Shown: in pieces, positions 1,695 to 18,188 of the stretch
Layout of the letters: each line of letters starts with the position of its first letter
Numbering within the stretch: position 1 is the first letter of the stretch
Assembly: GCA_016840855.1 (NCBI GenBank)
Contig: JAEORO010000212.1
Span: 1 to 18,217, forward strand
Direction of reading: 5' to 3'
Source: Candidatus Thorarchaeota archaeon
GTDB lineage: Archaea > Asgardarchaeota > Thorarchaeia > Thorarchaeales > Thorarchaeaceae
Length of the DNA: 18,217 nucleotides
Program-made: the position numbers and the translations under genes
Notes under the pieces: model-generated
The model's database searches: none
What the model saw: only the letters and a program-made list of their open reading frames with translations
Told to the model about the DNA's origin: nothing

Positions 1695-1718
1695 AAGTGT
1701 CTTAAGCATCTAGTGTGT

Positions 1719-1783: not shown

Positions 1784-1795
1784 TTGTGAGAAAAA

Positions 1796-2248: not shown

Positions 2249-2272
2249 TTATGAATTGTCGCGTAATTGTTA

Positions 2273-2284
2273 AACATTATATAT
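2273..2284 (+). promoter_or_regulatory. Putative archaeal TATA box for the ABC exporter operon
   Basis: TTATATAT at 2277-2284 is preceded by the A-rich AAACA and lies about 60 nt upstream of the TTG start at 2346. Confidence 0.4.
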
Positions 2285-2345
2285 CTTTAGAAGAAGAATT
2301 CGCATCTGATAGTCATAATAACAAAGAAAGGAAGTTTGAAGTCGA

Positions 2346-3125
2346 TTGTCTGCTGTTAAAATTCAGAATCTTGTAAAGACTTTTGGAGACTTAGTTGCTG
2401 TCAATGAACTCACTCTGGATGTTCGTGAGGGTGAGATATATGGACTTCTTGGTCCCAATGGTGCTGGGAAAACTACAACAATTAGAATGCTCATGGGCTT
2501 ACTTGATCCAGATTCTGGTCATGCAAGTGTTTTTGGCCTCGATTCAACAAATGATCCCGTTGGAGTGAAACGTCTTGTTGGGTATGTGCCTGAGGAACAA
2601 CAGTTGTATGATTCTTTGACTCCAAGAGAACTTTTCGACTTCATTGCATCAATCCGACAACTAGCTCAAGAAAAGGTAAACAAGAGAATCAAGGAATTTG
2701 TGAAAGCTCTTGATTTCGGAAAGTACTATGATAAGATGATTGTTACTCTTTCACAGGGCAATAAGCAGAAAACAATGTTAATTGCTGCGTTGTTACATGC
2801 GCCAAAGTTATTGATACTTGATGAGCCATTCTCCGGCCTTGATGTCCGATCTGCCAAAATAATGAAGGACATAGTACGAATTCATACCCAAAACGGAGGT
2901 TCGGTACTACTTAGCACACATGTAATGGAAATTGCACAGGGTCTTTGTGATCGAGTTGGTATAATTGATGAAGGTGTCCTGGTTGCAGAAGGCACGCTCG
3001 AAGAACTTCGGGTTAAAGCCCATAAAGATGGTGCAACTCTTGAAAGTCTATTTCTAAAATTGACAAAGCAAGAGGATGAAGTTGCTGAGGGAGTATCTGT
3101 GCTGCGGGAGGCACTAGTTGAATGA
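2346..3125 (+). CDS. ABC transporter ATP-binding protein (ABC-2/multidrug exporter type)
   Basis: Walker A GPNGAGKTT, signature LSQGNKQK, Walker B LLILDE, H-loop LLSTH. TTG start. ATGA overlap with the next gene. Confidence 0.95.
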   Translation: MSAVKIQNLVKTFGDLVAVNELTLDVREGEIYGLLGPNGAGKTTTIRMLMGLLDPDSGHASVFGLDSTNDPVGVKRLVGYVPEEQQLYDSLTPRELFDFIASIRQLAQEKVNKRIKEFVKALDFGKYYDKMIVTLSQGNKQKTMLIAALLHAPKLLILDEPFSGLDVRSAKIMKDIVRIHTQNGGSVLLSTHVMEIAQGLCDRVGIIDEGVLVAEGTLEELRVKAHKDGATLESLFLKLTKQEDEVAEGVSVLREALVE

Positions 3126-4759
3126 AATTTTCAGAAGCATGGAAACTCGCCAGTGTAATTGCACAAGAATCACGATTTCAAGCCTATTTAGAGATGAATC
3201 CATCAAATCTTGCACGAGTGAAGGAGTTTCCAGAAAAAATTTCACGTTCAATCAAATCATCCAGTCGAATCAGCTATGCGATGACTACAATGATTCTAAC
3301 AATGATTGCCATTATTGCTTTAGCAGCCTCGGCATTCGATGTTTCCATTGGGAATCCTGAAACACGATTAGCTGTGGGTTTCACTGTCTATTTAGCACTA
3401 ACATTCGTTGTTGTGTTCTTTCTTAACCTAACATCTACTACTGGATTAATCACTTCAGGTGCCATGAATTTACCTGCTATACTGCCTTTAAGTCGAGCCG
3501 ATATCGAACAGCTCTCATTCATGACCTTTGCTAGGATTTTCTTTGCTCCTGTCTTACTCTCATTAACAATATTTCCAATCGGTAGTCTGATTGTTTTTGG
3601 ACCTTTAGTAGCGCTGGTTGCTTTTGTTGCATGTGCAAGCACGATTTCAATTGCTATTGGAGCTCTTATTGCCATGTCAAAATGGTTCCATAGGAAATCT
3701 CACTCGTCAGATGAGTCAAGAGGTTCTGCCTTTGTTAGAATAGCAGCTTCACTTGGTATAGTAATTGGTATGGTCAGTGTGTATAGCTTAAGCAGCTATC
3801 TTCCTGCTCTGATGAGATTTATTATTGAACTCTCAAGTGTTTGGGGAGAGACTGCTTTCACGGTTTTAGCACTCGTCTTTCCTTTTTCATTTGGCTTCTT
3901 TGCAGCTTCATTGACATTTACCATGCCCTTACACACATTTCTTGCATCTATAGTTGGTACAAGTGTTTATTCCTTAATTGCTGTGATTCTATACTTCCGA
4001 AGTGGGAAATCTCTAAGACAAGTAACTATTAGTGGAGTGACGACCACACAGATTACCATCGAGAAAGAGGTAATCATTAATTCCACAAGCCCGCTCAAAG
4101 CAATGATACGTAAAGACCTTAAATTGGCTACAAGAAACATAGGCTCAGCTTTTGTTTTTGCAATACCAATTTTCCTCATCGTAATGCTATTTCCAATGAT
4201 TCAAAATTGGAGAGTTGATGGCTTTCTTCGTAGTGTGACTGCACTGACAGCTGTGAGTTATGCAAATCTGTTTGGTGGGATTTCATTAGTAACTATCCTA
4301 ATGTTCGATACGCAAGGCGCATCTGTGCATGAGGGACTTCCAATAAGCTCGAAGCTTGTTCTGAAAAGTAAGACATCGATTTTGATCGTTCCTTATATCT
4401 TGTGTATGGTTGCGATAGACATTATGATTCTAGTCAATAATCCAATCACACTTCTGCTACTTCTTATCCCAATCATTCAGATTCCCGTTGGATATTTTGT
4501 TGGAATGGCTGTAGGTGCAACAATCTTCCGGATGAGGGGTGGTGGTAGGGCAGTAGCAATCAATGTTGCCTCTGACCAAGCAATGGGTTTGATATCAGCG
4601 GCTATGGGAGCTGTTGCGGGCATTATTCCGCTTGTTGGATATGGACTTGCAATGCTGGCTACAGGGTCTCATGTAATCAGTCTGGCATGTCAAGGTATAC
4701 TTGTCATATTTACAATGATTCTAGCCCGGAACTACATACCCAAACTTCTGAAGGATTGA
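3122..4759 (+). CDS. ABC exporter permease (archaeal ABC-2-type, about 12 TM helices)
   Basis: Highly hydrophobic 545 aa in two halves, with typical ABC-2 elements (LPAILPLSRADI, PLKAMIRKDLKLATRN, EGLPISSKLVLKSK). Translationally coupled to the ATPase. Confidence 0.85.
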   Translation: MKFSEAWKLASVIAQESRFQAYLEMNPSNLARVKEFPEKISRSIKSSSRISYAMTTMILTMIAIIALAASAFDVSIGNPETRLAVGFTVYLALTFVVVFFLNLTSTTGLITSGAMNLPAILPLSRADIEQLSFMTFARIFFAPVLLSLTIFPIGSLIVFGPLVALVAFVACASTISIAIGALIAMSKWFHRKSHSSDESRGSAFVRIAASLGIVIGMVSVYSLSSYLPALMRFIIELSSVWGETAFTVLALVFPFSFGFFAASLTFTMPLHTFLASIVGTSVYSLIAVILYFRSGKSLRQVTISGVTTTQITIEKEVIINSTSPLKAMIRKDLKLATRNIGSAFVFAIPIFLIVMLFPMIQNWRVDGFLRSVTALTAVSYANLFGGISLVTILMFDTQGASVHEGLPISSKLVLKSKTSILIVPYILCMVAIDIMILVNNPITLLLLLIPIIQIPVGYFVGMAVGATIFRMRGGGRAVAINVASDQAMGLISAAMGAVAGIIPLVGYGLAMLATGSHVISLACQGILVIFTMILARNYIPKLLKD

Positions 4760-4876
4760 CTGATAATACAAACTTTCATTGTATGAATGCTTTGTAAACA
4801 ACCCATCAAAGCTTACATAGTCAAAATTCTCACAATTCTAGGAAACCTAATCCAAATTGAACTTGATGTGTAGAGC

Positions 4877-6127
4877 ATGTCCGAGGTCGAGCCCCAGGAA
4901 AAGGAAATTACGATATTTCAGAGAGCTCGTTTCATTCTTTTTGAACCCTCTCAAGAAATTAAATCTGATGTCCTTAGAATGAATGCTAGGCTCCTATCTT
5001 TTGCGCTATTCCTTATTGTTATTCTTCTCCCCTTCATCCAATTACTTTTGGGTATTCTTCTTGATAATAGCTTTCTATTTTTCTTTGCAACGAGTATCTT
5101 CTTGACGCTTTATTTAATTAGTAGAACAAAATTCGTCGTTGTTGCAGGAATTTTGACCACTCTTTGCTTAGCGATTATGCCATTCCTCTTCCTGTTAATG
5201 GAATTCAATCAGGATCCAGTCAGAGTGGCGTTGAATATTATAATTTGGCCTGTCATAGCAGCACTTTTTGGAAGTCAATGGTTAACATCTAAATTGGAAG
5301 CACTACTTATTATTGGAGAAACATCGAGTTTATTCATTTACTGTCACCTACACCCCAGCATCGGTCTTAGTGTTGCTCTAGAGCCTATTATAGATCAATT
5401 TGCACTATCCTTAGTTGTACTCATATTTACATGGATATTGCACTATTATGTACGACAGTTGGAAGAACACAAGCAATTCCTTGAGCAACGTCAACGGGAG
5501 CTTGAAGTCTATACTTCAGTTTTGACACACGATCTCGGAAATGATATGCAAATAGTTAGGGGTCTTGTTGAGCTTCTTCATGAAACACTGGAGATACCTC
5601 AAGATAAGGAGTCATACCTCTCCACCTCTATCGCTGTGAGTGAAAGGATGTCTCGCGTCATCAAGCTCTTCTCAGTTGTTGGGCGAGGTGTGGAATACGA
5701 TTTTCTTAAGACTCTCCAAACAATGGCTGATCGAGCCAAGGACGCGACTGGAGGGGCTAATGTCAGCCTTCTTATTGAACCTGATATTCGATCAGCTGAA
5801 ATTCGTCCAGGAATCTTACTTCCTTTAGTTCTGGAAAACTTGCTAAGGAATACCGCAGATTGTGTGGGTGAAAGCGCAGTTGTAACCATCCGTCTAGGAC
5901 TTGTGGAGAAGAGATTGATAATCACATATCGTGATAATGGACCCGGTATTGACGCAAGCATTAGAGATCGAATTTTCCAAAAAGGTGTAACGACGAAAGG
6001 TGAAGGAAAGGGTCTTGGTTTGTATCTTTCTAAGAGAATTGTAGAATCATATGGTGGCACAATCGAGTTATTAGATGAGCGGGAAAGAAAAGGTGCTGCA
6101 TTTCTCATCTCAGTACCAGTTCGGTGA
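4877..6127 (+). CDS. Membrane-bound sensor histidine kinase
   Basis: About 6 N-terminal TM helices and a coiled coil (QLEEHKQFLEQRQRELE). H-box THDLGNDMQ, N-box ENLLRN, G1 DNGPGI, F-box IFQKGVTTK, G2 GKGLGLYLS. Confidence 0.93.
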   Translation: MSEVEPQEKEITIFQRARFILFEPSQEIKSDVLRMNARLLSFALFLIVILLPFIQLLLGILLDNSFLFFFATSIFLTLYLISRTKFVVVAGILTTLCLAIMPFLFLLMEFNQDPVRVALNIIIWPVIAALFGSQWLTSKLEALLIIGETSSLFIYCHLHPSIGLSVALEPIIDQFALSLVVLIFTWILHYYVRQLEEHKQFLEQRQRELEVYTSVLTHDLGNDMQIVRGLVELLHETLEIPQDKESYLSTSIAVSERMSRVIKLFSVVGRGVEYDFLKTLQTMADRAKDATGGANVSLLIEPDIRSAEIRPGILLPLVLENLLRNTADCVGESAVVTIRLGLVEKRLIITYRDNGPGIDASIRDRIFQKGVTTKGEGKGLGLYLSKRIVESYGGTIELLDERERKGAAFLISVPVR

Positions 6128-6170
6128 AGAATGATTTGGTTTAATTAGGCAGAAGCTTGTAGCTTTTTGT

Positions 6171-6773
6171 ATGGGCTTTAGATATCAGAAATATTCGTTA
6201 ACAACAATAAGTGGAACCACAGTAGTTTTTCTTTACTGCGTGTTCACGTTGGTTTCATGGGCTTTCTACCCTGCTCCATATGGTCCTGTTACCCATTTTC
6301 TCAGTAGTTTAGGAAATTTCGATTATAGTCCCTTTGGCGCATATTTCTATAATCTTGGCTGTATTTTTACTGGTCTTGCTCTTATTCCATTTTTCATTAG
6401 TCTTAAGGATTGGTGGACCAAAAGTCCAGTTCAAAGAATTATCATGGTGATAGGTCAGCTACTTGGCATTGCGTCAGGAATTGCACTCATATCAATTGGT
6501 GTTTTTTCTGAGAATCTGGGTCAACCACATCTGGATGCTTCTAGTGCATTCTTCAGAATCATATTCTTTGTACTGATTCTGATAATTATTGCATTATTCT
6601 TCAATCCTGTATTCAATAAAATCGTTGGTGTTTATGGTTTTGGAATTACATTCTCAAGTCTTGGTTTTGCACTCACTGTTGGAGGTACTTTGACTGAGTG
6701 GTACACTGTTTTTGGTTCGTTACTCTTTGTAGCCCTACTTGCGTTAAATAGCATGAAGCTGAATAGTGATTGA
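6171..6773 (+). CDS. DUF998 / Frag1-DRAM-Sfk1-like integral membrane protein
   Basis: About 6 TM helices with family-like motifs Y..VTHFLSSLG, GAYFYNLGCIFTG and GIALISIGVFSEN...PH. TTTAATTA about 25-30 nt upstream suggests its own leaderless promoter. Confidence 0.7.
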   Translation: MGFRYQKYSLTTISGTTVVFLYCVFTLVSWAFYPAPYGPVTHFLSSLGNFDYSPFGAYFYNLGCIFTGLALIPFFISLKDWWTKSPVQRIIMVIGQLLGIASGIALISIGVFSENLGQPHLDASSAFFRIIFFVLILIIIALFFNPVFNKIVGVYGFGITFSSLGFALTVGGTLTEWYTVFGSLLFVALLALNSMKLNSD

Positions 6774-6862
6774 ACGAATGTAATATCGTAATCGTAGACG
6801 CTGGTCTTGGTGAATCAGGCGCTGCTTTGGAAGCTGCAAATAGGGGTCTGAAGATGATTTTT
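6770..6862 (+). pseudogene. Decayed 5' remnant of a GGR/FixC-family flavoprotein gene (paralog of 9731..11131)
   Basis: The first 31 codons MNECNIVIVDAGLGESGAALEAANRGLKMIF match MNEYEIVIVGAGPGGSTAAKEAAEKGLKTIF at 21/31 positions. GxGxxG is broken (G>D, G>E). Similarity stops abruptly, and the rest of the 76-aa ORF runs through promoter DNA. The TTGA overlap with the upstream stop is retained. Confidence 0.85.
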
Positions 6863-6981: not shown

Positions 6982-7063
6982 TATAAATAGTGAGATATAA
7001 TAGGTAGAATTCAACTGCGTAGAAATCTACCTATGCATAATAAGCTGATACGTTGAATTCATT
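6982..7063 (+). promoter_or_regulatory. Operon promoter with repeated palindromic operator candidates (consensus GTWGAWWTCWAC)
   Basis: TATAAATA at 6982-6989. GTAGAATTCAAC at 7004-7015, GTAGAAATCTAC at 7019-7030 and a partial copy GTTGAATTCATT at 7052-7063. A larger inverted repeat ATAGGTAGAATTC (7000-7012) / GAAATCTACCTAT (7022-7034) matches at 12/13. Confidence 0.6.
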
Positions 7064-7077
7064 GAGTACAAACATTC

Positions 7078-9174
7078 ATGGAGACCGTTGATTTGAGGCG
7101 TAGAACTAAGGGACTGCTGGCAATACTTGTTATTGCAGCAATTGCGATTCCATCAGTGATGTACATTTTGAACAGCATATTGAATCCTCCTCCTCCTGAA
7201 CCGCTCAATCTAGATGAGGCACCAGCTGAGATTCGAGCAATGAAAGCGGACCTTAAAGAAAAGCTATCAGAAGGAACGTTTACTTGGGATGATATGGAGA
7301 ACTTCTCGATATTCTCAAATTATGTTGCAGCTCATCATCCGGAAGCTCAAGAGATTACAAAAGATTGGGAAATTGTAGCAGTGCTTGAGGTGTTAGATTC
7401 AGGATATCTGTGGTTTACAGTTGCGAATGATGCATTGAATCTAACTGTAGAATCAGTTCCACCCGAAGATCCTGATGTAACCATAATCCTTAGTTTTGAC
7501 ACTTTGACTGAAGTATTCAGTGCCAGGACAACTGCTGCCGCTGCATTTCAACGTGGAGATGTTGATTTCGATGGGACTCTGGGGATTGCGCTTAAGATAG
7601 ACCGATTGAATACGATTTTCTCGTACACGATTATGGACGCAAAGCTCTACTACTCTTCTGGTATTATTAATTTCGTAATCACTGAGAGCATAGAAGGATC
7701 TTACACTCCAGGCTACACTCTATTTCCATGCATTGAGAGCATTATTACAAATGAATCGATGGAGACTGGGGCAATGGGTGCAGGAAAGGTACTCATTGTT
7801 GATGACCAAGGAACCATAGTGAATCAATTAGATGATTCCCAACACAGCGTTCACAAGTTCATTAATTCAACAGCAGTCATGATGGGTGGATCTGACGGGT
7901 GGATGGAGATCTGGGATTTCGTTTCTGATACTCGAGTGGAACTTGATATTCCTGCTGGGCATCATGAGTTGGACTATAATCCGATAACTGATACTTTCAT
8001 GGTATTGGAAACTGCAACCAATGGAGAATTTTGGGGCGGGTTGGAAGTTATCTATGATACCATTAGTGAATACAATTGGGATGGAGACCTTCTCTGGCAG
8101 TGGGATGCTAGAGTGCATCTTCCATTCAATTCAACACTTTACACAACCATATGTAACAATTACACCTTCAGAGGCTATACCGACTGGATGCACGCTAATA
8201 GCTTTGCCTGGGATAAGGTAGAGAATACAATATGGCTTAATGTAAGAAATCAGGACACAATCCTGAAGATTGACAAAGATAGTGGCGAGATCATTTGGAG
8301 AGCTGGTCGAAATGGTAATTTCACCATACTTGACATAAATGGTACTGAAGTGGATTCGATTTGGCATTACCCTCATAGTTTAGAGTGGATTGGTAACAAT
8401 CGATACATTTTGTTTGATAATGGTCTCTTCGATCCTGATGTTCCAACATCTATGACTCGGAATGGAACTGGAATATCTGGCTTTGTTGAGTTTGAGATTG
8501 ATGAAGAAAATCAGGAAATACGTGAAGTCTGGTCCTGGCATGCAACAAATTCAACTTACTACTTCTCCGAATCAGGAGGAGATGCAGATAGACTACCTGA
8601 TGGTAATACTCTTGGAATCTTCGCAAATCAAGCATTAGTACTTGCTCAACCTGATCCCGTCATCTTTACAGAGGTGACTCGTGATGGAGAGATTGCCTGG
8701 GAGCTTCAAGTCCGTGGTGGGAACGGTACTTACTATTGGGCTCATAGAGTCGAGAGATTCTATGAAGCACCTCTGATTGAAGTTCAGAATCAAGTCGTAG
8801 ATATTAATGCAGGTACACTATGGCTGAATATCTCAACATGGAATTGTGTGAAAGAGATGTTTTCAACAGATGGAGAGATTCGTGTCATTGTTGATGGTAC
8901 TGAGATCTACCAAGATACATTTGAGTTTCAACCTCAATGGATAGCAACGAATCTTGAGGTTTCGCTGAGTAACCTTCCAACAAACATCAGGTATATCGAA
9001 CTCCAGGTAGAGAATAATGATGGAATTCTCAAGTCAGTAGTCATCTATGGTTCCGTAAATCCACAATCGGTTGATCCTGTATTCTATGTACTCGTAGGAA
9101 TTATGGTAGCTATTCCAGTTATTATAGTGATAAGTCTGATACGAACTGGAAAAATCAAACTTAGTAGAGAGTGA
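7078..9174 (+). CDS. Membrane-anchored SCP2 (sterol-carrier) domain / arylsulfate sulfotransferase (ASST) fusion protein
   Basis: N-terminal signal-anchor plus a PPPPEP linker. SCP2-like segment LWFTVANDALNL...PDVTIILSFDTLTEVFSARTTAAAAFQRGDVDFDGTLGIALKI. ASST motifs GHHELD, DWMHANS, NVRNQDTILKID, WHYPHSL, LFDNG, GDADRLPDGNTL. Beta-rich C-terminal domain and a C-terminal TM helix. 12 NxS/T sequons counted. Confidence 0.85.
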   Translation: METVDLRRRTKGLLAILVIAAIAIPSVMYILNSILNPPPPEPLNLDEAPAEIRAMKADLKEKLSEGTFTWDDMENFSIFSNYVAAHHPEAQEITKDWEIVAVLEVLDSGYLWFTVANDALNLTVESVPPEDPDVTIILSFDTLTEVFSARTTAAAAFQRGDVDFDGTLGIALKIDRLNTIFSYTIMDAKLYYSSGIINFVITESIEGSYTPGYTLFPCIESIITNESMETGAMGAGKVLIVDDQGTIVNQLDDSQHSVHKFINSTAVMMGGSDGWMEIWDFVSDTRVELDIPAGHHELDYNPITDTFMVLETATNGEFWGGLEVIYDTISEYNWDGDLLWQWDARVHLPFNSTLYTTICNNYTFRGYTDWMHANSFAWDKVENTIWLNVRNQDTILKIDKDSGEIIWRAGRNGNFTILDINGTEVDSIWHYPHSLEWIGNNRYILFDNGLFDPDVPTSMTRNGTGISGFVEFEIDEENQEIREVWSWHATNSTYYFSESGGDADRLPDGNTLGIFANQALVLAQPDPVIFTEVTRDGEIAWELQVRGGNGTYYWAHRVERFYEAPLIEVQNQVVDINAGTLWLNISTWNCVKEMFSTDGEIRVIVDGTEIYQDTFEFQPQWIATNLEVSLSNLPTNIRYIELQVENNDGILKSVVIYGSVNPQSVDPVFYVLVGIMVAIPVIIVISLIRTGKIKLSRE

Positions 9175-9178
9175 AATA

Positions 9179-9721
9179 TTGAGTAAAGATTTCAAACTAA
9201 TCCTACCTACTCCTGAGAAACTTACGCCAATTCAGGCTCTAATACTGGTTCAATTGCTTGAAAACCCAAAATATGGTTACGAAATTCTACGCAATCTGCG
9301 AGACGCATTTCATGGGTCCTGGGAGCCGAAAACCGGAACCATATATCCTTCGCTTCAAGCTTTGGAAAAGAAGGGGTATGTTTCAAAGCGTGTTAAAGAT
9401 GAAACAACGCATTACAGTCTGAGTGAAGAAGGGAAAGAGAAGCTTAGAGAGATGAGTGATTATATGGCATTCTACTTTCTGTTCAACTCTCGCTTCATTG
9501 AATCAACTGTAGCAAATATGCCCCCTTCTTTCATACAGGAAGTCTTCATGAAAATACACCTAGCCGGAATTGATGAAATGATTCCTGAAGCTCCTATTCT
9601 GAAGGCTGTTCGAGAGCTTTCAGACAAAGACCTGAAAAGAGTTTTCCTTGAGCGGAGGAAAAAGATTCTGGAAAGAAAAATCAAACTAGTGAAAAAGGAA
9701 CTAAAAGATTTGGATGGGTAG
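9179..9721 (+). CDS. PadR-family transcriptional regulator
   Basis: LILVQLLENPKYGYEILRNL...WEPKTGTIYPSLQALEKKGYV...HYSLSEEGKEKL is the PadR wHTH signature. C-terminal coiled helix. TTG start. Confidence 0.93.
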   Translation: MSKDFKLILPTPEKLTPIQALILVQLLENPKYGYEILRNLRDAFHGSWEPKTGTIYPSLQALEKKGYVSKRVKDETTHYSLSEEGKEKLREMSDYMAFYFLFNSRFIESTVANMPPSFIQEVFMKIHLAGIDEMIPEAPILKAVRELSDKDLKRVFLERRKKILERKIKLVKKELKDLDG

Positions 9722-9730
9722 GGTGAGTAA

Positions 9731-11131
9731 ATGAACGAATATGAAATTGTCATAGTGGGAGCAGGTCCCGGAGGTTCGACTGCTGCAAAGGAAGCAGCAG
9801 AAAAGGGTCTCAAGACTATCTTCTTTGAGCGTGGAAGGACTCCAGGTGAGAAGAACTCGTCTGGTTGTGGTCTTGGTCCACGATTGTGGCGAGAATTTGA
9901 TATCATGAAGGAGATCAACTCTAAGGACTGTCCTTCAATACGAGAGGGACGTGCTGCTCGAAATTACATGGTGGATAGTGAGGGGAAAGTAACTGGTTAC
10001 ATCATGACAACACCTACATCATCTGTCGAATATGAACCAGCAAAAAGCTGGATCACTTTGAACTGTTATAGAAGTGATTTTGATCCATGGTTAGCGAAAT
10101 ACGCCGTCGAAGCAGGAGCTGAGTTAAAGACATCTACCTTAGTCACAGGTCTCTTGAAAGAAGATGGAAAAGTAGTCGGAGTTATTGATGAGAAAGGTGA
10201 GAAGTACAAGGGCTTCGTTATAGGCGCAGATGGGGCAGTTTCCATGGTGGCTCAACAATCAGGGTTGCGCCAGAGATGGGGGCAGAAACAGGTGACTCTG
10301 ACTCTTCAGTATGACTTCGAATGTTCGACATCAAAGATAGACGATGTGATGGGTGATGAAGCATTAGCTGTGTGGTGGTCAGCGACATTTCCAGCAGCAT
10401 ACCAAGTGTTCTTCAATTCTAGTTTTCATATAGGGTTTGGAAACTGGATGACTTGGTGGGACCGCAATCCTGTTCATTATCTGAACAAGGTTATCAATCT
10501 CGATTACTTCCAGCGATTAATTAGAGTTCTCGATGCCAAACCTCGAGAGTTTCAGGCTCATCTTCTACCATGGATGGGAATGCCTGTAAACACTCATACG
10601 GACAATGTGATCTTGATTGGAGATGCAGGAGGATTTCCATGTCCGCTTGAAGCCGAGGGTATCTATCCTGCTATGGTTACCGGTAGAGCTGCGATAGAGA
10701 CCGCAGCTGAAGCAATTTCAGCTTGTGACACTTCCAAGCAGTTTCTCTCTCTATATGACAAGAAATGGATGGAGACCTCTGTAGGAGAGGACTTCAAGTC
10801 CGGTCCAGAACTACAGAGCATTTGGATGGCTCTTCCATTCAGTCCAAGACAATCAATGTCCTGGTTTGTGCCATTATTCATGGAGATTTTAGGTGGGATA
10901 ATTGACTGGTCCGAAGCACATCCTGTGAGAATACGTCAGGTCGCTCGGAGAATTAAACAATACTTACCTCAATTAGTGCCTTTCATAGTGAAAGAAGTGA
11001 TTCCGCTTTTGACATCAGTCTTAGGTGAGGACCGGATGGATCTGCTGACAGATCCTGAGAAACTTCTTACTGCGATGCCAGAGATTGAAGAAGCCATTAC
11101 GAAAGCTTTCACTTCCGAGGAGGAGGATTGA
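9731..11131 (+). CDS. FAD-dependent oxidoreductase, geranylgeranyl reductase / FixC family
   Basis: Rossmann motif IVIVGAGPGGSTAA, ERGRTPGEKNSSGCG (FixC-like), RSDFDPWLAKYAVEAGA, VIGADG, and ILIGDAGGFPCPLEAEGIYPAMVTG. GGTGAG ribosome-binding site upstream. Confidence 0.9.
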   Translation: MNEYEIVIVGAGPGGSTAAKEAAEKGLKTIFFERGRTPGEKNSSGCGLGPRLWREFDIMKEINSKDCPSIREGRAARNYMVDSEGKVTGYIMTTPTSSVEYEPAKSWITLNCYRSDFDPWLAKYAVEAGAELKTSTLVTGLLKEDGKVVGVIDEKGEKYKGFVIGADGAVSMVAQQSGLRQRWGQKQVTLTLQYDFECSTSKIDDVMGDEALAVWWSATFPAAYQVFFNSSFHIGFGNWMTWWDRNPVHYLNKVINLDYFQRLIRVLDAKPREFQAHLLPWMGMPVNTHTDNVILIGDAGGFPCPLEAEGIYPAMVTGRAAIETAAEAISACDTSKQFLSLYDKKWMETSVGEDFKSGPELQSIWMALPFSPRQSMSWFVPLFMEILGGIIDWSEAHPVRIRQVARRIKQYLPQLVPFIVKEVIPLLTSVLGEDRMDLLTDPEKLLTAMPEIEEAITKAFTSEEED

Positions 11132-11406
11132 AAGAAATGAATATTGACCACAAGAAACTTGTGAACCGAGTACAGGGGACCGGCGACTTCATTAGCATAG
11201 ACAATACCAAGTGTACCCTTTGCGAACGTTGCCTAGTCATCTGTGTAATGAATCTCTGGAAAAAACGTGATGGCACAGTTTACATTGTTGAAGACTACAC
11301 CTCACAGTGTTTAGAATGCGGCGCATGTGCTCAGGTATGTGAAACCGATGCAATAGAATTCAGATTTCCTGCTGGAGGAACTGGAATAGTAATCGAGCAG
11401 GGTTAA
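11128..11406 (+). CDS. FixX-like 2x[4Fe-4S] ferredoxin
   Basis: CTLCERCLVIC and CLECGACAQVC motifs. The C-terminus IEFRFPAGGTGIVIEQG resembles the FixX tail. TTGA overlap with the GGR/FixC gene (alternative ATG at 11137). Confidence 0.9.
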   Translation: MKEMNIDHKKLVNRVQGTGDFISIDNTKCTLCERCLVICVMNLWKKRDGTVYIVEDYTSQCLECGACAQVCETDAIEFRFPAGGTGIVIEQG

Positions 11407-11422
11407 CATTGACAAAACAAGG

Positions 11423-12871
11423 ATGAGACAAACAACCATGATTACAGAAGTAGCAAAGATTGTCGGAGATGACAGAGTTTCCAACAAGCAAGAGATACTT
11501 GAGGAATATTCTGGTGATTTCAATCCCTCATTAGTCGTCTGGCCAATGTCAAGTGATGAGGTTGTTGAGATTCTGACATGGGCCAACTTAAATTCAGTAC
11601 CTATTATTCCAGTGAGTTCTGGACTCCCAAGAAGGAGAGGTTCCTCAGTACCAAAAGTAGACAATGCAGTAATTGTTGACCTTAGTAGGATGAAAAAAAT
11701 CCTAAGGATAGATTCGAAGAATAAAGTGGTAATGGTCGAACCTGGAGTTACATTTGGTCAGTTGATTCCTGAGCTCAAAAAGAATGGACTTCGACCACTA
11801 ATGCCCCTCCTTCCTAAAGCAACAAAGTCTGTTCTGGCAAGTTGTCTTGATAGAGAACCTACAACAATTCCTCGATTTCATTGGGATCTTTCAGATCCAC
11901 TCCTCTGTACTGAAACTGTTTTTGGTACTGGTGATAAACTAAGAACTGGGTCAGCTGCGGGACCAGGTTCCTTGGATGAACAGTGGGCATCAGGTCAGGC
12001 TCAAAAGAACCCTCAAGGACCATCACAGTTTGATCCATTCCGGATTATTCAAGGTTCTCAAGGAACAATTGGAATTACATCATGGATATCAATGAAATGC
12101 GAACATCTCCCTGCTGTTCATACAATATTTCTTGCTGGATCAGAGAGCTTGGATGACCTTGAACCTTTCAACTATGCATTGCTACGAAGACGTCTCGTCG
12201 ATGAGCATTTCATACTCAATGAGGTGTGCTTGACTGCTGCTCTTGGGTCACGTAAGGAGGTTCCTGCTTGGATACTAGTACTCGGCGTTTCTGGCCATGG
12301 CTTACTATCTCAGGAGGAGTTTGAATATCGAAAAAGTGACACAATGGACATCGCCAAAGAATTCAATGTGCGACTCGATAATTCTATTGGAGATCTCAAT
12401 GGAAACGAAGTCAAGTCATTCCTAAACAGACCGAGTGCTGAATCATATTGGAAATATAACCTTCAAGGCAGTTGCAAAGAAATTTGTTTTATGACAACTC
12501 TGGACCAAGTTCAAGGACTGTTCAACGCATTCTCTGATGTAGCAACTCAGGTTGGTTTTTCAGGTGACCAAATAGGTGTTTACATCCAGCCTATGGTACA
12601 AGGGGTAACTACACATTGTACAATCGACCTCTACTATGACCCCGATAATGATCAAGAAGTGGCATCGATGACTAACCTCTTGAAAAAGGGTCAACTGAAG
12701 CTACTAGATGAAGGAGCGTTCTTCAGTAGGCCATATGGCAGCATTACTACTGCTGTGTTCGAGAAATCCTCACCTGAGATGCTAAAGGCACTTCATAGTG
12801 TCAAAAAAATCTTTGATCCCAACAATGTGATGAATCCTGGGTCTCTCAGCTTCAAGGAGGTGCCCAAATGA
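11423..12871 (+). CDS. FAD-binding oxidoreductase, VAO/PCMH (GlcD-like) family, subunit 1
   Basis: VVWPMSSDEVVEIL, PIIPVSSG, VIVDLSRMKKILRID..NKVVMVEPGVTFGQL, GSQGTIGITS, C-terminal KKIFDPNNVMNPG. The start could instead be ATG 11438. Confidence 0.92.
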   Translation: MRQTTMITEVAKIVGDDRVSNKQEILEEYSGDFNPSLVVWPMSSDEVVEILTWANLNSVPIIPVSSGLPRRRGSSVPKVDNAVIVDLSRMKKILRIDSKNKVVMVEPGVTFGQLIPELKKNGLRPLMPLLPKATKSVLASCLDREPTTIPRFHWDLSDPLLCTETVFGTGDKLRTGSAAGPGSLDEQWASGQAQKNPQGPSQFDPFRIIQGSQGTIGITSWISMKCEHLPAVHTIFLAGSESLDDLEPFNYALLRRRLVDEHFILNEVCLTAALGSRKEVPAWILVLGVSGHGLLSQEEFEYRKSDTMDIAKEFNVRLDNSIGDLNGNEVKSFLNRPSAESYWKYNLQGSCKEICFMTTLDQVQGLFNAFSDVATQVGFSGDQIGVYIQPMVQGVTTHCTIDLYYDPDNDQEVASMTNLLKKGQLKLLDEGAFFSRPYGSITTAVFEKSSPEMLKALHSVKKIFDPNNVMNPGSLSFKEVPK

Positions 12872-14139
12872 CTTTGGACCAATTTGAAGAGATGATGGAC
12901 AGCTGTGTCCGTTGTTCAAAATGCAAGTACATTCCACAGATAGCAATTAAGAGCCAACGATTCTCTCATATCTGTCCCTCCATCCAATACTACAATTTCC
13001 ACGCCTACTCTGGTGGTGGAAGGATGATAATGGCTAACGCATACCATAAAGGCAGAATCGATTGGACCCCTGAGATGCTTGATATACTCTACCAATGCAC
13101 CAATTGTGGAGGGTGCGAGGTGGCATGTAAATGGGTATATGATTTTGAGCCCAATGAAGTCATTCATGAGCTCCGAGTCAAAGCTATCGAGTCTGGCGTT
13201 GGACCTATGCCTGCGCATAGAAAGTACATAGAGCTGGTGGAGCGAAATAACAATCCCTATGGCGAGCCTATAGAGAAGAGACCTGCTTGGCTTTCTGATG
13301 ATATCGAAGTTGATGACAACTCCTCCACTCTATACTTTGTTGGCTGCACAGCCGCTTATCGCAGGGAAGAGATTGCTCTAAGTACAGCTAGGTTACTCAA
13401 TGTAGCAAATGAAAGTTTCAGTATTCTCGGCTCTGACGAGATCTGCTGTGGAAGTCCAGTCTATCGTGTAGGCGACAGCAAGAGGGCTATAGACATCATG
13501 AGAGATAATATCGAGCTCTTTAGAGAACGGGGAATAGAACGTATCATTACCAGTTGTGCAGGATGCTATAATATGCTCAAGACTGAGTATCCCCGGTTCA
13601 TAGAGCATGATTTTGAAATCATTCATACCTCACAACTCATGGGAGAGTTGCTCAAAGATGGGCGCTTGAAACCAACGAAAGAGATTCCCCTAAAGATCAC
13701 GTATCATGATCCATGTCATCTTGGTAGAATGTCTGAACCATATGAGCTCTATGAAGGGGAAAAGGTCGAACTGCTCTCTCAGGTCTACATATGGGATCCT
13801 CCAAAGCCCATTCGGCAGGGTACGCATGGTGTGTATGATGCTCCTCGAAATGTAATCAGACAACTCCCCGGAATCGAATTCATTGAGATGGAGAGGATTA
13901 GGGAATACTCCTACTGCTGTGGAGCTGGAGCTGGATGTAAGTCCGCCTATCCTGATTTTGCACTCTTTGCTGCAAATGAGCGTGTTGATGAGGCTGAGTC
14001 AACAGGTGCATATGCTCTAGTTTCAACATGTCCTTTTTGTAAGACTAACATGCAAGATGCACTGAAAACTAGGAGGAGTCCGATGGTTTTCTACGACCTG
14101 ACAGAGCTCGTCCTGAAAAGTGTGGACGGTGGTGAGTAG
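12868..14139 (+). CDS. HdrD/GlpC/GlcF-like iron-sulfur protein (4Fe-4S dicluster + two CCG domains)
   Basis: CVRCSKC...CPS and CTNCGGCEVAC. CCG domain 1: YFVGC...EICCG...TSCAGC. CCG domain 2: YHDPCHLGR...YCCGAG...STCPFC. ATGA overlap, with a GGAGGTG RBS. Confidence 0.93.
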   Translation: MTLDQFEEMMDSCVRCSKCKYIPQIAIKSQRFSHICPSIQYYNFHAYSGGGRMIMANAYHKGRIDWTPEMLDILYQCTNCGGCEVACKWVYDFEPNEVIHELRVKAIESGVGPMPAHRKYIELVERNNNPYGEPIEKRPAWLSDDIEVDDNSSTLYFVGCTAAYRREEIALSTARLLNVANESFSILGSDEICCGSPVYRVGDSKRAIDIMRDNIELFRERGIERIITSCAGCYNMLKTEYPRFIEHDFEIIHTSQLMGELLKDGRLKPTKEIPLKITYHDPCHLGRMSEPYELYEGEKVELLSQVYIWDPPKPIRQGTHGVYDAPRNVIRQLPGIEFIEMERIREYSYCCGAGAGCKSAYPDFALFAANERVDEAESTGAYALVSTCPFCKTNMQDALKTRRSPMVFYDLTELVLKSVDGGE

Positions 14140-15723
14140 ATGCTAGAGGATGATGTCTACAGTAAATTCAGTCAGGTTGTAGGTGAGCGATTTATCACAC
14201 AAGCTCCTGCAATACTTGACACATACGCTTTCCAGTGGGGATTTGAGATTGAGAGTGCGCAGAAAGGCAAAGAACCATCTAGGTTTGGTGTTAGACCAGC
14301 AGCTGTTGTTCTGCCAAGTACTACTGAGGAAGTTCAGACAATAGTTAGGATATGTAATGAACATGATGTTAAGTTCAAGGCACTCAGCACTGGTATGGGC
14401 CCTTGGGCTGGAGTGTCTCATCCCCGGTCAATCCAGATTGATCTTCGTCGAATGAATAGAATCGTTGAGATTGACTCAAAGAACATGTATGCTGTCATTG
14501 AACCATATGTGACGAATGCGGAGCTTCAAGCTGAACTTTTCAAATATGGTCTAATGCATCATGCTCAAGGTGCTGGTCCTCAAACATCGCCACTCGCGAG
14601 TCATACTGCATTTGTTGGACCAGGGTTCACATCACCATATACTGGTTTCAGCGGGAGAAACCTACTTGGAGTTGAATGGGTTCTGCCTAGTGGTGAATTG
14701 CTAAGAGTGGGTTCTTATGACTATACTGGAAAGTGGTTCAGTGGTGATGGACCTGGCTTTAGCATGAGGGGCGTTATCAGGGGTTGGATGGGATCATATG
14801 GAGGACTCGGTGTATTCACAAAAGCCGCAATCAAGCTATACTCGTGGCCTGCTCCAAAGGATTGGACTTGGGAGCTCAGTGGAACTATCCCCCACTACGA
14901 GTGGAAAGTACCACCCTTTTGGAAGATGTTTGTGTTGAACTTTCCAGAGTGGGAGAATTTCGAACCAGCTTTCTATGAAGTAAATGATCACGACGCTGTA
15001 ATGATGGCTACATGCTCTTCAGCAGAAGGACTTGCAGGTCTCTTTACAGACACGAAGATGGAGGCAATTGAAGCCATCTTTGGAGGTGTTCTCCTTCATG
15101 CTAAGCGGTTCTTTATTGTCCTAGTGACCGCACACACTGAACGGGAATTCGAGTACCGAATTAAGCTCATTAAAGCCATTATGGAGAAACATGGTGGGAA
15201 CGACCTCATCGAGGATGGTGTGATCTCACCCAGAGATGCACACTATGCTGAGTCGGTGAGGAATATGCTTGGTGGCCATGCATTCCGTTTTTCCAACTGC
15301 TTCCAGAGCACTCATGGAGGAATGGACACTATAGCACTAGCTGTGAGAATCGCTCAAGTGAATCAACCTATCAAGTTCAGGTATATCGAGAAAGGTGTCA
15401 TTGGTGACGATAGAGGAGAGGGGGTATGGACCACTGCTTATGAGGGAGGACATACAGCGCATCTGGAAGTTCCTACTGTGTACAATGCAGCATCAATTGA
15501 CTCTTGTAAGGGATACGCTGAGTACCAAGATGAGTGCAATAAAGTTGACCTTCAGCAATCTCTTGGAATGCCATTCTTTATCGTAGGTGATAAGGTGCAT
15601 GACTACTACGGTCCTCGCACAATGGATTATCCAAGATGGTTACGCAAGATCAAAGCCACATTCGACCCGAAGGGAGTTGGTGACTCTAGTCACTACATCT
15701 CTGCAGGTCAAAGAGAGGAATAA
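14140..15723 (+). CDS. FAD-binding oxidoreductase, VAO/PCMH family, subunit 2
   Basis: PAAVVLPSTTEEVQTIVRICN, KALSTG, IQIDLRRMNRIVEIDSKNMYAVIEPYVT, LLGVEWVLPSGELLRVGS, GSYGGLGVFTKAAIKL, KIKATFDPKG. GGTGAG RBS at 14131-14136. Confidence 0.92.
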   Translation: MLEDDVYSKFSQVVGERFITQAPAILDTYAFQWGFEIESAQKGKEPSRFGVRPAAVVLPSTTEEVQTIVRICNEHDVKFKALSTGMGPWAGVSHPRSIQIDLRRMNRIVEIDSKNMYAVIEPYVTNAELQAELFKYGLMHHAQGAGPQTSPLASHTAFVGPGFTSPYTGFSGRNLLGVEWVLPSGELLRVGSYDYTGKWFSGDGPGFSMRGVIRGWMGSYGGLGVFTKAAIKLYSWPAPKDWTWELSGTIPHYEWKVPPFWKMFVLNFPEWENFEPAFYEVNDHDAVMMATCSSAEGLAGLFTDTKMEAIEAIFGGVLLHAKRFFIVLVTAHTEREFEYRIKLIKAIMEKHGGNDLIEDGVISPRDAHYAESVRNMLGGHAFRFSNCFQSTHGGMDTIALAVRIAQVNQPIKFRYIEKGVIGDDRGEGVWTTAYEGGHTAHLEVPTVYNAASIDSCKGYAEYQDECNKVDLQQSLGMPFFIVGDKVHDYYGPRTMDYPRWLRKIKATFDPKGVGDSSHYISAGQREE

Positions 15724-15726
15724 AAC

Positions 15727-16806
15727 ATGGACGAACAAATAAGTCAAATAGTCAGAGAAGGTTGGACCGGTCCGGGAAGACGTGACGGTACAATCATTCC
15801 AATGAAACCAGAAGAAGACGCACTTCACATCGATGTAGGAGCAAAGAACCAGTATGAATGGTGGTACTTTGATGCTCATCTTGATGGAGGATATACTCTC
15901 GTAGCATTCTTCTATGCTGCTTATCCAAATCCGGGACTTGACCAAGGAAAGATTGCGGTCGAATTGACACTTCTGAGACCTGATGGACGCAAGACACAGA
16001 AGGTTATCAAATACAAGAAATCGGAGTTCTATGCTTCAAGAGAAATGCCCGATGTCAGGATCGGAGAGAATTACATGAAGGTGGAATTCCTTGAAGATGG
16101 GCTCCCAGTCTATGAGATTTTCTTGGAAGATAAAGATCTCATGTTTCATCTGACTTACAAAGCTCAGGTCAAGGGTTGGAAACCAGGCACTGGTTATTCA
16201 CATTTTGCTGATATGGGTCACTTCGCTTGGGTCGTTCCTTTTGCAAGAGCCTCTGTTGAAGGGACTGTTAGAGATGGAGAAACGACAATATCTGTGACAG
16301 GTGTTGGTTACCACGATCATAATTGGCTGAATTTTTCTTTCCAGAGCATCATAGATTATTGGATGTGGGGCAGAATCTACTCTGAGAGTTTTACTGTTTC
16401 ATACGCTTTCATCCAGTGCAATAAGAAAGTGGACAATCATCAGGTTAAGGTGTTGCTTCTAGCTAAAGATGAAGATCCGATTCTCAGTACCGGTGATTAC
16501 CAATTCTTCAAGGAAGCCTTTGAGTTTAGTCCAAGTGCAAAACACAGCTTCCCTCACAAAATAGTCATCAATGTCCCAAATGAAATGCGAGTCGAGATGA
16601 AAGTGAACAAGATTCTAGAAGCAGTAGACATGCTTGACAATTTCGGAGTAGCTCTTCGTTTCGTAGCAAAGAATATTCTACGATTGAAACCTGGATACTT
16701 TAGACTCCTCTCGGATTTTGATCTAGAGGTGAATCATGAAGGTACGACTTTCAAAGAGAATGGTTCAACACTTCACGAAATCGTATTATTCAAGTCTGCT
16801 GAGTGA
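15727..16806 (+). CDS. CrtC (carotenoid 1,2-hydratase) / tocopherol cyclase / AttH-like lipocalin-fold protein
   Basis: YEWWYFDAHLDGGYTLVAFF, HFAWVVPFARASVEGTV, TGVGYHDHNW and WMWGR are motifs typical of the CrtC/AttH superfamily. No signal peptide. Confidence 0.75.
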   Translation: MDEQISQIVREGWTGPGRRDGTIIPMKPEEDALHIDVGAKNQYEWWYFDAHLDGGYTLVAFFYAAYPNPGLDQGKIAVELTLLRPDGRKTQKVIKYKKSEFYASREMPDVRIGENYMKVEFLEDGLPVYEIFLEDKDLMFHLTYKAQVKGWKPGTGYSHFADMGHFAWVVPFARASVEGTVRDGETTISVTGVGYHDHNWLNFSFQSIIDYWMWGRIYSESFTVSYAFIQCNKKVDNHQVKVLLLAKDEDPILSTGDYQFFKEAFEFSPSAKHSFPHKIVINVPNEMRVEMKVNKILEAVDMLDNFGVALRFVAKNILRLKPGYFRLLSDFDLEVNHEGTTFKENGSTLHEIVLFKSAE

Positions 16807-16901: not shown

Positions 16902-18188
16902 CTATGAATACTCATCTGGCGAAACTCGCATCTCTTCATCTAGTTCCGTTTCTGCCATTGTGCCAATTCTTGCCTCTAGGTTCTTCAACACCTGACAGGT
17001 CCCCGTTTTTAAAATCTCGTCAATAGTCTTCACCATCGAGTCATCTATCATTAGATACTGTTTCAAATCTCCCCTCTGTTTGAGTTCACCCAGTTCGTCA
17101 GCTCCCCGTTCAATCTGTGCAGCAAGCTCCCAGTAAGGCTTGATCCTGTTTCTTGATATTCCTAAGTGCATACCCATTCGAAAGACGATATCAAGTAAGA
17201 CTCCTAAAACGAGATTGTTTGACTCGTGTTCGTGAGGAGTCTTATGCCTAACAGATCGGTCTCTTAAATTAAATTCCCGACAGATATGATATCCCATGGT
17301 CATTACATGGACTGGGAGTCGAGTCCAAATAGGTTGACCATAGGTATTGTTGTTTTCATAAATTCTCTCTATGGCATCATAGTTTGCTAAATACCTTCTT
17401 TTTATTACACGCATGAAATAGTCTTTCTGCCGACCGGGTTTTAGTGTCATTCCGCCAAATTGAATGAATTCACCATTTGCAAGTTTTGTTTTCTTTACGA
17501 GTTCAGTCATGTTTTCCAGGTTATCTCCAATTGTTGGAATGATTGGAGTTGCCATGACACCACCATAGAGACCTGCATTCCGGATTTCTTTAAGCGCAGC
17601 ATACCTCTCAGATGTAGTTGCTGCATTTGGTTCAAACACCTTCTGAACTTCATCATCTGCACATGTTATCGTGAACGCAACATTCGCAAAAGCTCTATCA
17701 TGAATCTCCTTGAGTAAATCCAAATATTCCAACACAAGAGCCGACTTTGTGAGAATAAAGACAGGTAAACCATAATCGAGAAGAGTTTCTAGAATTCGTA
17801 ATGTGACTTTGTGTTCTCGTTCAGCAGGTTGAAATCCATCACTCACGCCACCGCATGCTCCAATTACAAGGTTTTGAGGAACTTTTTCTGCAATCCTTTT
17901 TGCATCCTCATCATCAAGAAATGACCATAGCGTTTCTGATTCCAATTCAGATCTAGATGTGAAACCCAGTTTCTTTAGTTCCCTTTGAAGGACTTGAGCT
18001 GCATTTTCCTTAATTCTGATATGCGAGGAGAAGTTGTCTACGTGATAATACTCTGAATTTCCATCGCAATAAACGCAACCGTGCTCACATCCTCTGTAAG
18101 CGTTAAGACTTCGGTTCATATGGAACCAACTATCTGCAACATGCGGTTTAGATAGCAGAGACTTTGCTTTGATGCATTCATATTGCAT
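16902..18188 (-). CDS. Radical SAM protein, SplB/Rv2578c-like (putative DNA repair), with a C-terminal PolX-like HhH domain
   Basis: SLNAYRGCEHGCVYCD (CxxxCxxC), SDGFQPAE, VFILTKS, VAFTIT, VFEPNAATTSERYAAL, PIIPTIGD. The C-terminal ~85 aa resemble the 8-kDa N-terminal domain of family X polymerases. Confidence 0.88.
   Translation of the reverse strand: MQYECIKAKSLLSKPHVADSWFHMNRSLNAYRGCEHGCVYCDGNSEYYHVDNFSSHIRIKENAAQVLQRELKKLGFTSRSELESETLWSFLDDEDAKRIAEKVPQNLVIGACGGVSDGFQPAEREHKVTLRILETLLDYGLPVFILTKSALVLEYLDLLKEIHDRAFANVAFTITCADDEVQKVFEPNAATTSERYAALKEIRNAGLYGGVMATPIIPTIGDNLENMTELVKKTKLANGEFIQFGGMTLKPGRQKDYFMRVIKRRYLANYDAIERIYENNNTYGQPIWTRLPVHVMTMGYHICREFNLRDRSVRHKTPHEHESNNLVLGVLLDIVFRMGMHLGISRNRIKPYWELAAQIERGADELGELKQRGDLKQYLMIDDSMVKTIDEILKTGTCQVLKNLEARIGTMAETELDEEMRVSPDEYS

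Follow-up and report, generated by a model that had tools for sequence, protein, structure and literature searches.

A PadR-associated operon of a Thorarchaeota archaeon in which a conserved flavoprotein/iron-sulfur triad is joined to an AttH/CrtC-fold protein: a candidate oxygen-independent route into isoprenoid-type compounds

Eight co-oriented open reading frames (ORFs), packed on the forward strand of contig JAEORO010000212.1 of a Candidatus Thorarchaeota archaeon (assembly GCA_016840855.1), raise the question of whether they form one regulated pathway and, if so, what kind of compound that pathway acts upon. The contig was analysed whole (its 18,217 nucleotides are termed ‘the window’ below) and belongs to a genome of 3.36 Mb that is 92% complete. 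The genes occupy positions 7078-16806, with successive spacings of 4, 9, -4, 16, -4, 0 and 3 nt, and are bounded by a convergent gene, exactly as had been claimed in a reading made from the DNA letters before any database search (the ‘sequence-only reading’). In order, they encode an SCP2-arylsulfotransferase (ASST) fusion; a PadR-family regulator; a flavoprotein of the geranylgeranyl reductase (GGR)/FixC superfamily; a ferredoxin; the flavoprotein FAD1; an iron-sulfur (Fe-S) protein with CCG domains; the flavoprotein FAD2; and a protein of the AttH/CrtC fold, LIP. Pfam recognizes ASST (104.6 bits), SCP2 (31.4 bits), PadR, FAD_binding_3, Fer4, FAD_binding_4 (twice) and CCG in the first seven and CrtC in LIP (24.5 bits against a cut-off of 22.5), while none of the eight reaches the cut-off of any NCBIfam model. 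We suggest, with a probability of about 45%, that the last four genes attack a water-insoluble compound of the isoprenoid type (a prenyl chain, a piece of an ether lipid or a steroid side chain) without oxygen, within what is likely a single PadR-repressed operon.

The evidence that these four genes belong together comes from their neighbourhoods in other genomes. Within the genus, 21 of 27 genomes have LIP, against none of nine from other genera of the family and two of 24 more distant genomes. Loci were obtained for 20 of these 23 LIP-positive relatives: FAD2 adjoins LIP in 19 of them, the full order FAD1-CCG-FAD2-LIP is seen in 16, three are cut off by the end of the contig and one (L037) has no triad and a broken LIP. 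The GGR-like/ferredoxin pair lies 5' of FAD1 in ten of the 14 relatives' loci that show the region, and is missing from the other four. A wider scan of species genomes returned at least 554 LIP relatives, of which the best 80 were analysed, the identity counts leaving aside L040-L042, three loci that are Thorarchaeia-like and include two duplicates. Among these best 80, a triad gene or fragment adjoins LIP in 21 of 24 loci at 44% LIP identity or above (the exceptions being two Hodarchaeota loci that lack a triad gene and one locus on a contig of insufficient length) and in none of 53 loci at 39% or below; the linked cases come from Lokiarchaeia, Hermod-, Heimdall- and Bathyarchaeia, Nitrososphaerales, Methanomassiliicoccales and Chloroflexi. 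The arrangement varies: the GGR-like pair stands head-to-head with FAD1 in seven Loki/Hermod loci, and a record assigned to Heimdallarchaeota (L047:12314-15526) holds FAD1 and FAD2 fused in one ORF of 1071 codons, in the order LIP-CCG-fusion. An unbiased screen was made of 401 genomes from the phylum of G061, a Desulfatitalea of the Desulfobacterota; the close LIP clade occurs in six of them, adjoining FAD2 in five, and a LIP relative of any kind in 22. The conserved core is smaller than the operon, and consists of FAD1, the CCG Fe-S protein, FAD2 and LIP, whose synteny extends from Asgard and other archaea to Dehalococcoidia and Desulfobacterota; the gene-neighbourhood search that the sequence-only reading had proposed as its check thus finds synteny kept across phyla.

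That the window's genes are also regulated together is indicated by an operator that had been noticed earlier, along with a TATA element, and that can now be defined more sharply, as two 12-bp boxes (GTAGAWWTCWAC). A matrix built from the corresponding sites of nine relatives, with the window excluded, scores 47.4 bits at this site, and the runner-up in the whole genome scores 19.0 bits. The matrix matches 15 of 58 scanned loci, six of the 15 having been held out of the model, and the operator always precedes the first gene, which is padR in nine loci and the sulfotransferase in six; in one relative (L142, positions 470-496) it is reversed relative to the sulfotransferase gene. No match was found at six stand-alone sulfotransferase loci, or at loci without padR, among the 58 (several of which end before the upstream region). 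Of the elements next to the boxes, GATATAA, immediately before them, is retained in the closest relatives, and TATAAATA at 6982 is altered there (TACAAATA, CACAAATA). Because this operator occurs only once in the genome and stands ahead of the leading gene, whichever that is, the eight genes are likely to form one PadR-controlled transcript, with PadR binding and co-transcription predicted from this arrangement, in keeping with the single co-regulated unit proposed earlier. The same genome scan disclosed no second regulated locus that might hint at a substrate.

The member of the core that speaks most directly to a substrate is LIP. Its model (pLDDT 89) is a double beta-barrel that matches the fungal pericyclase CghA, a second pericyclase, Fsa2, AttH, kievitone hydratase and 25-phosphosteroid lyase at Z scores of 27.9-20.4 over 278-303 residues, the next match falling to 9.3. 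The resemblance to 25-phosphosteroid lyase is also found by Foldseek (E 2e-8), at 12-13% identity. The carotenoid hydratase RgCrtC is described as requiring H239, W241, Y266 and D268 (PMC4717167) and W110, W283 and W285 (PMC12402844). LIP carries invariant Y195, D197, W212 and W214 at a spacing identical to that of RgCrtC Y266, D268, W283 and W285, and both tryptophans are kept in 99 of 100 family ORFs that bear the YHDxNW pattern. LIP thus shares its double beta-barrel with CrtC, kievitone hydratase, 25-phosphosteroid lyase, AttH and the Diels-Alderases, has an Asp/Tyr/Trp/Trp set spaced as in CrtC, and is predicted to be an acid catalyst with D197 as the catalytic aspartate; it differs from the CrtC group in its low identity (9-16%), in a phenylalanine at the position of CrtC His239 and in the lack of any tie to carotenoid genes. 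Where substrates are known for its fold neighbours, pericyclases excepted, the site of action is a prenyl or steroid side chain (PMC11061730). A profile search with LIP against PDB sequences gave no match, a plasmid search returned no characterized CrtC, and a search for AtuA found no match in any control genome.

More distant LIP homologues offer further context. Four Desulfobacterota loci (L278-L281) hold them in conserved clusters with ChsH2-OB, thiolase, enoyl-CoA hydratase and beta-oxidation genes, which possibly represent a second steroid or isoprenoid pathway; one of the four also has phytoene-desaturase-like genes. In six actinobacterial loci the homologues stand behind genes of the MpaB/Lcp families.

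An SCP2 domain, fused to the sulfotransferase in the window, has a gene of its own, sited between FAD2 and LIP, in two loci (L026, L041), and a 135-aa ORF occupies the same place in ten Loki/Hermod loci (e.g. L051:9539-9952), with a likeness of 0.92 to an SCP2 cluster of the ESM Atlas. Between them, SCP2 and the AttH fold make the hydrophobic substrate that had been supposed from the letters plausible.

The other three core genes form a flavoprotein/Fe-S ‘triad’. Both FAD1 and FAD2 find their best PDB sequence matches in PCMH, eugenol oxidase and relatives, and the model of FAD2 (pLDDT 74) is about as close to D-lactate dehydrogenase as to the 4-phenol oxidases (14-20% identity). GlcDEF and LctD-EtfAB likewise combine two flavoproteins of the VAO fold with a CCG Fe-S subunit, but their identity to the triad is 15-17%, their partners are others, and the NCBIfam GlcD model scores 65.7 and 70.8 bits on FAD1 and FAD2, respectively, against a cut-off of 568. 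A pattern for the C-terminal His/Glu metal motif, which we take to be the mark of GlcD and D-lactate dehydrogenase, had no match in FAD1, FAD2 or 11 other paralogues, in a comparison that included no positive control. The GlcD cut-off and the sequence matches together agree with the earlier view that these are not recognizable lactate or glycolate dehydrogenases. Both proteins are distant from the genome's other FAD_binding_4 paralogues; the thorarchaeial and Loki FAD2 proteins form one clade (FastTree support 1.0), with the deeper branching unsettled. The triad family comprises 284 representatives at E <=1e-30, and in the 401 genomes introduced above 138 match at 1e-25 and some 70 (counted by hand) at 1e-50. 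Elsewhere in the window's own genome, contigs C137 and C257 hold further FAD_binding_4/CCG pairs or triads (four on C137) whose likeness is at the level of the fold, one of those on C257 standing behind a free SCP2 gene.

Triads of this kind have attracted attention as candidates for the anaerobic activation of benzene, a role proposed, not shown, in two papers of 2026 for the ‘conspicuous flavoprotein’ BzS1_12970/80/90 (PMC13416013) and for the ‘Magic’ proteins 24-26 of ORM2a (PMC13101534). Our triad shares with them the order FAD/Fe-S/FAD, similar sizes, a GlcDEF-like composition, a proposed link to ETF and the same domain pattern (both Pfam domains in flavoprotein 1, the N-terminal one only in flavoprotein 2), a likeness at the level of layout. 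It differs from them in its archaeal host and in its partners, here an AttH-fold protein, a GGR/FixC-like pair, PadR and an optional ASST. The core orthologues of the benzene-candidate triad are 63-89% identical among themselves, and syntenic homologues at 23-42% identity are there assigned probably other functions (PMC13416013). None of the ten triad-family representatives looked up, from 150, carries a BzS1 or ORM2a accession, and six taxon words are absent from four supplementary files of PMC13416013, whose figure trees may already include Asgard homologues. Forty Desulfobacterota triad loci, picked by score and annotated for gene clusters that recur in at least two of them, contain ETF genes in 13 cases, aldehyde:ferredoxin oxidoreductase in six, a GGR-like pair in five and MMPL or DUF1329 genes in five; within that annotation, none has the Magic-type layout.

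An aromatic substrate must also be weighed: a lignin-derived compound, an alkylphenol or a benzene-like ring, upon which the triad would act as the proposed benzene activator and whose side chain LIP would hydrate or cleave. Arylsulfate sulfotransferases have phenols as substrates and the founding PadR senses phenolic acids, and the PDB sequence matches of both flavoproteins point the same way, as do the gene order and domain pattern shared with BzS1 and ORM2a and the fact that kievitone is itself a prenylated phenol (PMC6013536). The phenolate-binding residues do not. Eugenol oxidase holds its phenolate with a cluster of Y91, Y471 and R472 (PMC11148156); in HMMER alignments, made without superposition, these correspond to R72, S435 and R436 of FAD1, so that the arginine is kept and both tyrosines are lost, and the cluster is not recognizable in FAD2, which has A89 and no Tyr-Arg pair near its C-terminus. 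FAD1 does retain the Arg, His and Asp of the PCMH C-terminal positions, but the triad as a whole departs from the 4-phenol oxidases (PCMH, eugenol oxidase, VAO) both in the missing phenolate tyrosines and in an Fe-S partner where those enzymes use cytochrome c or O2. Since neither flavoprotein carries the Tyr-Tyr-Arg cluster, the oxidation of phenols envisaged by the sequence-only reading is weakened. The operon is also without the MaoC and class III CoA-transferase genes that neighbour the BzS1 and ORM2a triads, Pfam and NCBIfam finding neither these nor acyl-CoA ligase or beta-oxidation genes in the window, and the probably different functions of syntenic homologues at 23-42% identity speak against a transfer of the benzene role. 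We therefore regard an aromatic substrate as unlikely, if worth keeping in mind.

The GGR/FixC-like flavoprotein raises a second alternative, namely that the operon is biosynthetic and serves to tailor lipids, quinones or carotenoids of the cell itself, with LIP hydrating them and the GGR-like enzyme reducing them with its ferredoxin. The superfamily of this gene, its dedicated ferredoxin and its retention of the P-x-x-Y of the GGR motif would suit such a role, as would a phytoene synthase in the genome. The protein itself is equidistant from FixC and DGGGPL reductase, and falls below the cut-offs of all GGR and FixC models. In common with FixCX (EtfCX) and with an archaeal geranylgeranyl reductase that works with ferredoxin, it belongs to this superfamily and has a ferredoxin gene directly behind it (in every Asgard locus where the position is visible); it carries a FixC-like KN motif, and its bacterial relatives have ETF genes nearby. 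It reads P-A-x-Y-Q-V-F-F, however, where those proteins have P-x-x-Y-x-W-x-F-P or, in FixC, GGGFLYTN. The PxxYxWxFP and C-G-E motifs of DGGGPL reductase, as seen in the alignment with PDB 3OZ2, are both lacking. In a quick tree of 40 rows the operon protein falls in a clade of 13 (SH-aLRT 100) that excludes the motif-bearing reductases as well as FixC, the E. coli and rhizobial members of which stand in a separate clade. A housekeeping DGGGPL reductase was accordingly rejected, on the separate clade, the cut-offs and the motifs, as the sequence-only reading had anticipated.

Rows of that clade had been chosen by neighbourhood, and the 401 genomes were therefore screened with the GGR-like protein alone. 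The clade occurs in six (Desulfobacterota), in all six beside triad genes and in five with ETF genes in the locus; because of this pairing, the gene is probably an electron relay or a pathway-specific reductase rather than a part of lipid housekeeping. Among the Asgard loci examined there are no ETF genes, and the window's genome has its sole etfAB pair elsewhere (C86:5538-13919), in a cluster that resembles hdrABC by eye and whose EtfA has an N-terminal ferredoxin domain. The linkage of these genes, the Cys motifs and the confinement of hydrophobic helices to the sulfotransferase (one at each of its ends) support the soluble flavin/Fe-S/ferredoxin relay first supposed from the letters.

Against tailoring stand this occurrence of the clade in bacteria beside ETF genes, the ten GGR-family matches in the genome (of which the operon's is one, and below cut-off), the absence of the pair from four of 14 relatives' loci, and the location of the carotenoid genes on another contig, with phytoene synthase found in none of five other module-carrying genomes tested. 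Those genes (C240:9587-15435) comprise the phytoene synthase, two desaturase-like genes, a UbiA-family gene and a membrane protein that is by eye perhaps CruF; no gene of the MqnA/D family was found in the 92% complete genome. A patchy operon under a repressor would, moreover, better suit inducible catabolism. Tailoring appears to us improbable.

The sulfotransferase that heads the operon had given the sequence-only reading its possibly sulfated substrate. The protein scores above the PF05935 cut-off, matches PDB entry 9KF4 (E 1e-7) and AssT (E 0.003), and has intact His/His-Asn/Arg/His motifs, in linked and unlinked copies alike, the roles of these residues being assumed from E. coli AssT. 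It shares domain and motifs with AssT and the PAPS-independent arylsulfate sulfotransferases, but adds an SCP2 domain and two membrane anchors (hydropathy segments at residues 9-36 and 664-693) and is one of several Thorarchaeia paralogues, of which a genome may hold up to six, some of about 1000 aa (L140-L149). A group of SCP2-ASST proteins at 50% identity has other neighbour genes and no operator. The gene is followed by padR in four relatives (G006, G018, G019 with two divergent copies, and G021) and in G003 probably also stands behind the operator, whereas the operon begins with padR, and has no sulfotransferase, in nine; seven of these nine genomes gave no ASST-domain match with this query, the other two holding stand-alone copies, and none was seen in the non-Thorarchaeia loci examined. 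Heading the operon in four relatives, absent from it in nine and unseen beyond Thorarchaeia, the sulfotransferase is an accessory, co-regulated where present and not pathway-defining, so that neither the eight genes as one obligatory pathway nor sulfate as its hallmark can be upheld.

A more active part for sulfate can be imagined, in which the sulfotransferase would sulfate a tertiary alcohol and LIP would eliminate the group, on the model of the phosphate-based pair 25-hydroxysteroid kinase and 25-phosphosteroid lyase. That tandem is on record (PMC8449060, PMC11061730), LIP has the fold of its lyase (with the Z score and Foldseek match given above), and the SCP2-bearing sulfotransferase sits behind the same operator. 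The identity of LIP to the lyase is low, however, the sulfotransferase is missing from most operon copies and was not found, with this query, in the seven genomes just mentioned, and the two enzymes would seem to be separated by the membrane, since anchors at both ends suggest an outward-facing catalytic part and LIP has no hydrophobic segment; such a scheme is very improbable. Least probable of all is a chance cluster of an ordinary GlcDEF or lactate dehydrogenase with a housekeeping geranylgeranyl reductase, for which the GlcDEF-like subunit set and the top Foldseek match of the FAD2 model (D-lactate dehydrogenase, 17% identity) could be cited, and which is contradicted by GlcD scores far under cut-off, by flavoproteins forming a family of their own, by a reductase outside the DGGGPL-reductase-like groups and by a linkage to LIP and the GGR-like pair that persists across phyla.

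Returning to the attack on an isoprenoid-type compound, the steps might run as follows. An inducer would free PadR from the tandem boxes; SCP2 would carry the substrate, and the membrane-anchored sulfotransferase, where present, could strip or transfer a sulfate ester outside the cell. LIP Asp197 would then protonate the substrate in a Trp-lined cavity, so that a hydroxyl is added, removed or shifted at a tertiary or allylic carbon, after which a FAD1-FeS-FAD2 heterotrimer might take a hydride from an alcohol, ether or allylic carbon to yield an aldehyde or ketone. Electrons would leave through the Fe-S subunit, bound for the GGR/FixC-like flavoprotein and its ferredoxin or, in loci without these two, for ETF.

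Several observations weigh against this reading, beginning with the fact that all its chemical steps are inferred and no evidence on the substrate is direct. The fungal Diels-Alderases (Z 27-28) outrank kievitone hydratase (23.0) and 25-phosphosteroid lyase (20.4) among the fold matches of LIP, and because they do so the fold alone shows no hydration. The mapping of LIP residues onto CrtC is by spacing, with no alignment to CrtC, and the position of His239 is F166 in LIP (with W168 kept), being Phe in 67 of the 77 family ORFs where the pattern could be placed and His in none. Many distant LIP homologues have neighbours unrelated to lipids, Pfam (0 of 8), hhalign and a local profile all fail to recognize the Loki 135-aa ORF as SCP2, and the D-lactate dehydrogenase match of the FAD2 model is slightly better than those to the 4-phenol oxidases. 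LIP is found in only five of the 40 Desulfobacterota triad loci, one of which came to light in the LIP screen of the 401 genomes, and a second AttH family in two (where, beside the two triads, it gave a sequence match to AttH 2ICH and none to 25-phosphosteroid lyase); because most of these loci lack LIP, the triad family serves many substrates. The thorarchaeial LIP is 62-65% identical to that of Dehalococcoidia (L043, L046) and the triad 31-38%, an excess from which we conclude that parts of the operon have been shuffled and which suggests that LIP has been exchanged between lineages; between window and Loki, the figures are 44-50% for LIP and 40-52% for the triad. Related genomes, finally, are not independent of one another.

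A wider version of the proposal is more doubtful. It would have Asgard archaea, Dehalococcoidia and sulfate reducers share an undescribed, O2-independent means of activating the side chains of isoprenoids or steroids: a GlcDEF-like flavoprotein from the benzene-candidate family, with its own FixCX-like relay, would be fed by an acid catalyst of the AttH fold, and in some Thorarchaeia a surface SCP2-sulfotransferase would open sulfate conjugates of the substrate. As for its novelty, the literature search found no description of the gene set in archaea (most subscription papers lay outside its reach), and the earlier statement that no such system is described stands for the set as a whole and falls for the FAD/Fe-S/FAD layout, which PMC13416013 and PMC13101534 do describe.

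Features of the window, in order of position, with the basis of each assignment.
Feature	Position	Strand	Basis
GGR/FixC-like gene relic: degenerate copy of first ~31 codons, at start of a 76-codon ORF	6770..6862	+	genome ORF comparison
Likely TATA element, directly 5' of operator	6994..7000	+	same place as GATATATAAG/GATTAATAAG in relatives; function inferred
Tandem operator-like palindromes GTAGAATTCAAC-TGC-GTAGAAATCTAC, predicted PadR site	7004..7030	+	matrix scan
SCP2 + arylsulfotransferase (ASST) beta-propeller; accessory	7078..9174	+	Pfam, hydropathy, motifs, PDB matches
PadR-family regulator, TTG start	9179..9721	+	PF03551 62 bits; co-occurrence with operator
GGR/FixC-superfamily flavoprotein, clade tied to triad	9731..11131	+	own clade; neighbourhood
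2x[4Fe-4S] ferredoxin, FixX-like	11128..11406	+	two CxxCxxCxxxC motifs
FAD1, VAO/PCMH-fold flavoprotein	11423..12871	+	Pfam; PDB sequence matches
HdrD/GlcF-type Fe-S protein: N-terminal ferredoxin-like Cys motifs, two CCG domains	12868..14139	+	PF02754 122 bits
FAD2, VAO/PCMH-fold flavoprotein, uncharacterized anaerobe family	14140..15723	+	sequence matches; model
LIP, AttH/CrtC-fold double beta-barrel protein	15727..16806	+	alignment; model; fold comparison
Convergent radical-SAM gene, operon boundary, outside unit	16902..18188	-	ORF and domain calls

The surroundings of the operon are less constant than its core. The radical-SAM gene lies 95 nt past the operon, and adjoins LIP in some relatives only. 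Upstream, same-strand genes at 33-6773 encode a beta-propeller surface protein, an ArsR-type regulator, an ABC ATPase with a 12-TM (transmembrane) permease, a histidine kinase and a membrane protein; they are kept in some relatives and lie before the operator. The stop of the membrane-protein gene is overlapped by the relic, whose best match among 3170 genome ORFs is the operon's own GGR-like gene (score 87, against 52 for the next and a maximum of 39 for shuffles), and which has no counterpart upstream of the sulfotransferase in four relatives. Since two relatives (L029, L150) hold an MFS transporter gene at this place, the site has been rearranged.

The FAD/Fe-S/FAD triad is a family with no known substrate or mechanism, one branch of which is the foremost candidate for the anaerobic activation of benzene. 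The operon described here offers a handle on that family, in the form of a defined operator for a PadR ligand screen, a cofactor-free partner with a predicted catalytic aspartate, and soluble subunits. Its substrate would also show which hydrophobic carbon sedimentary Asgard archaea draw on, and by what means recalcitrant lipids are turned over under anoxia.

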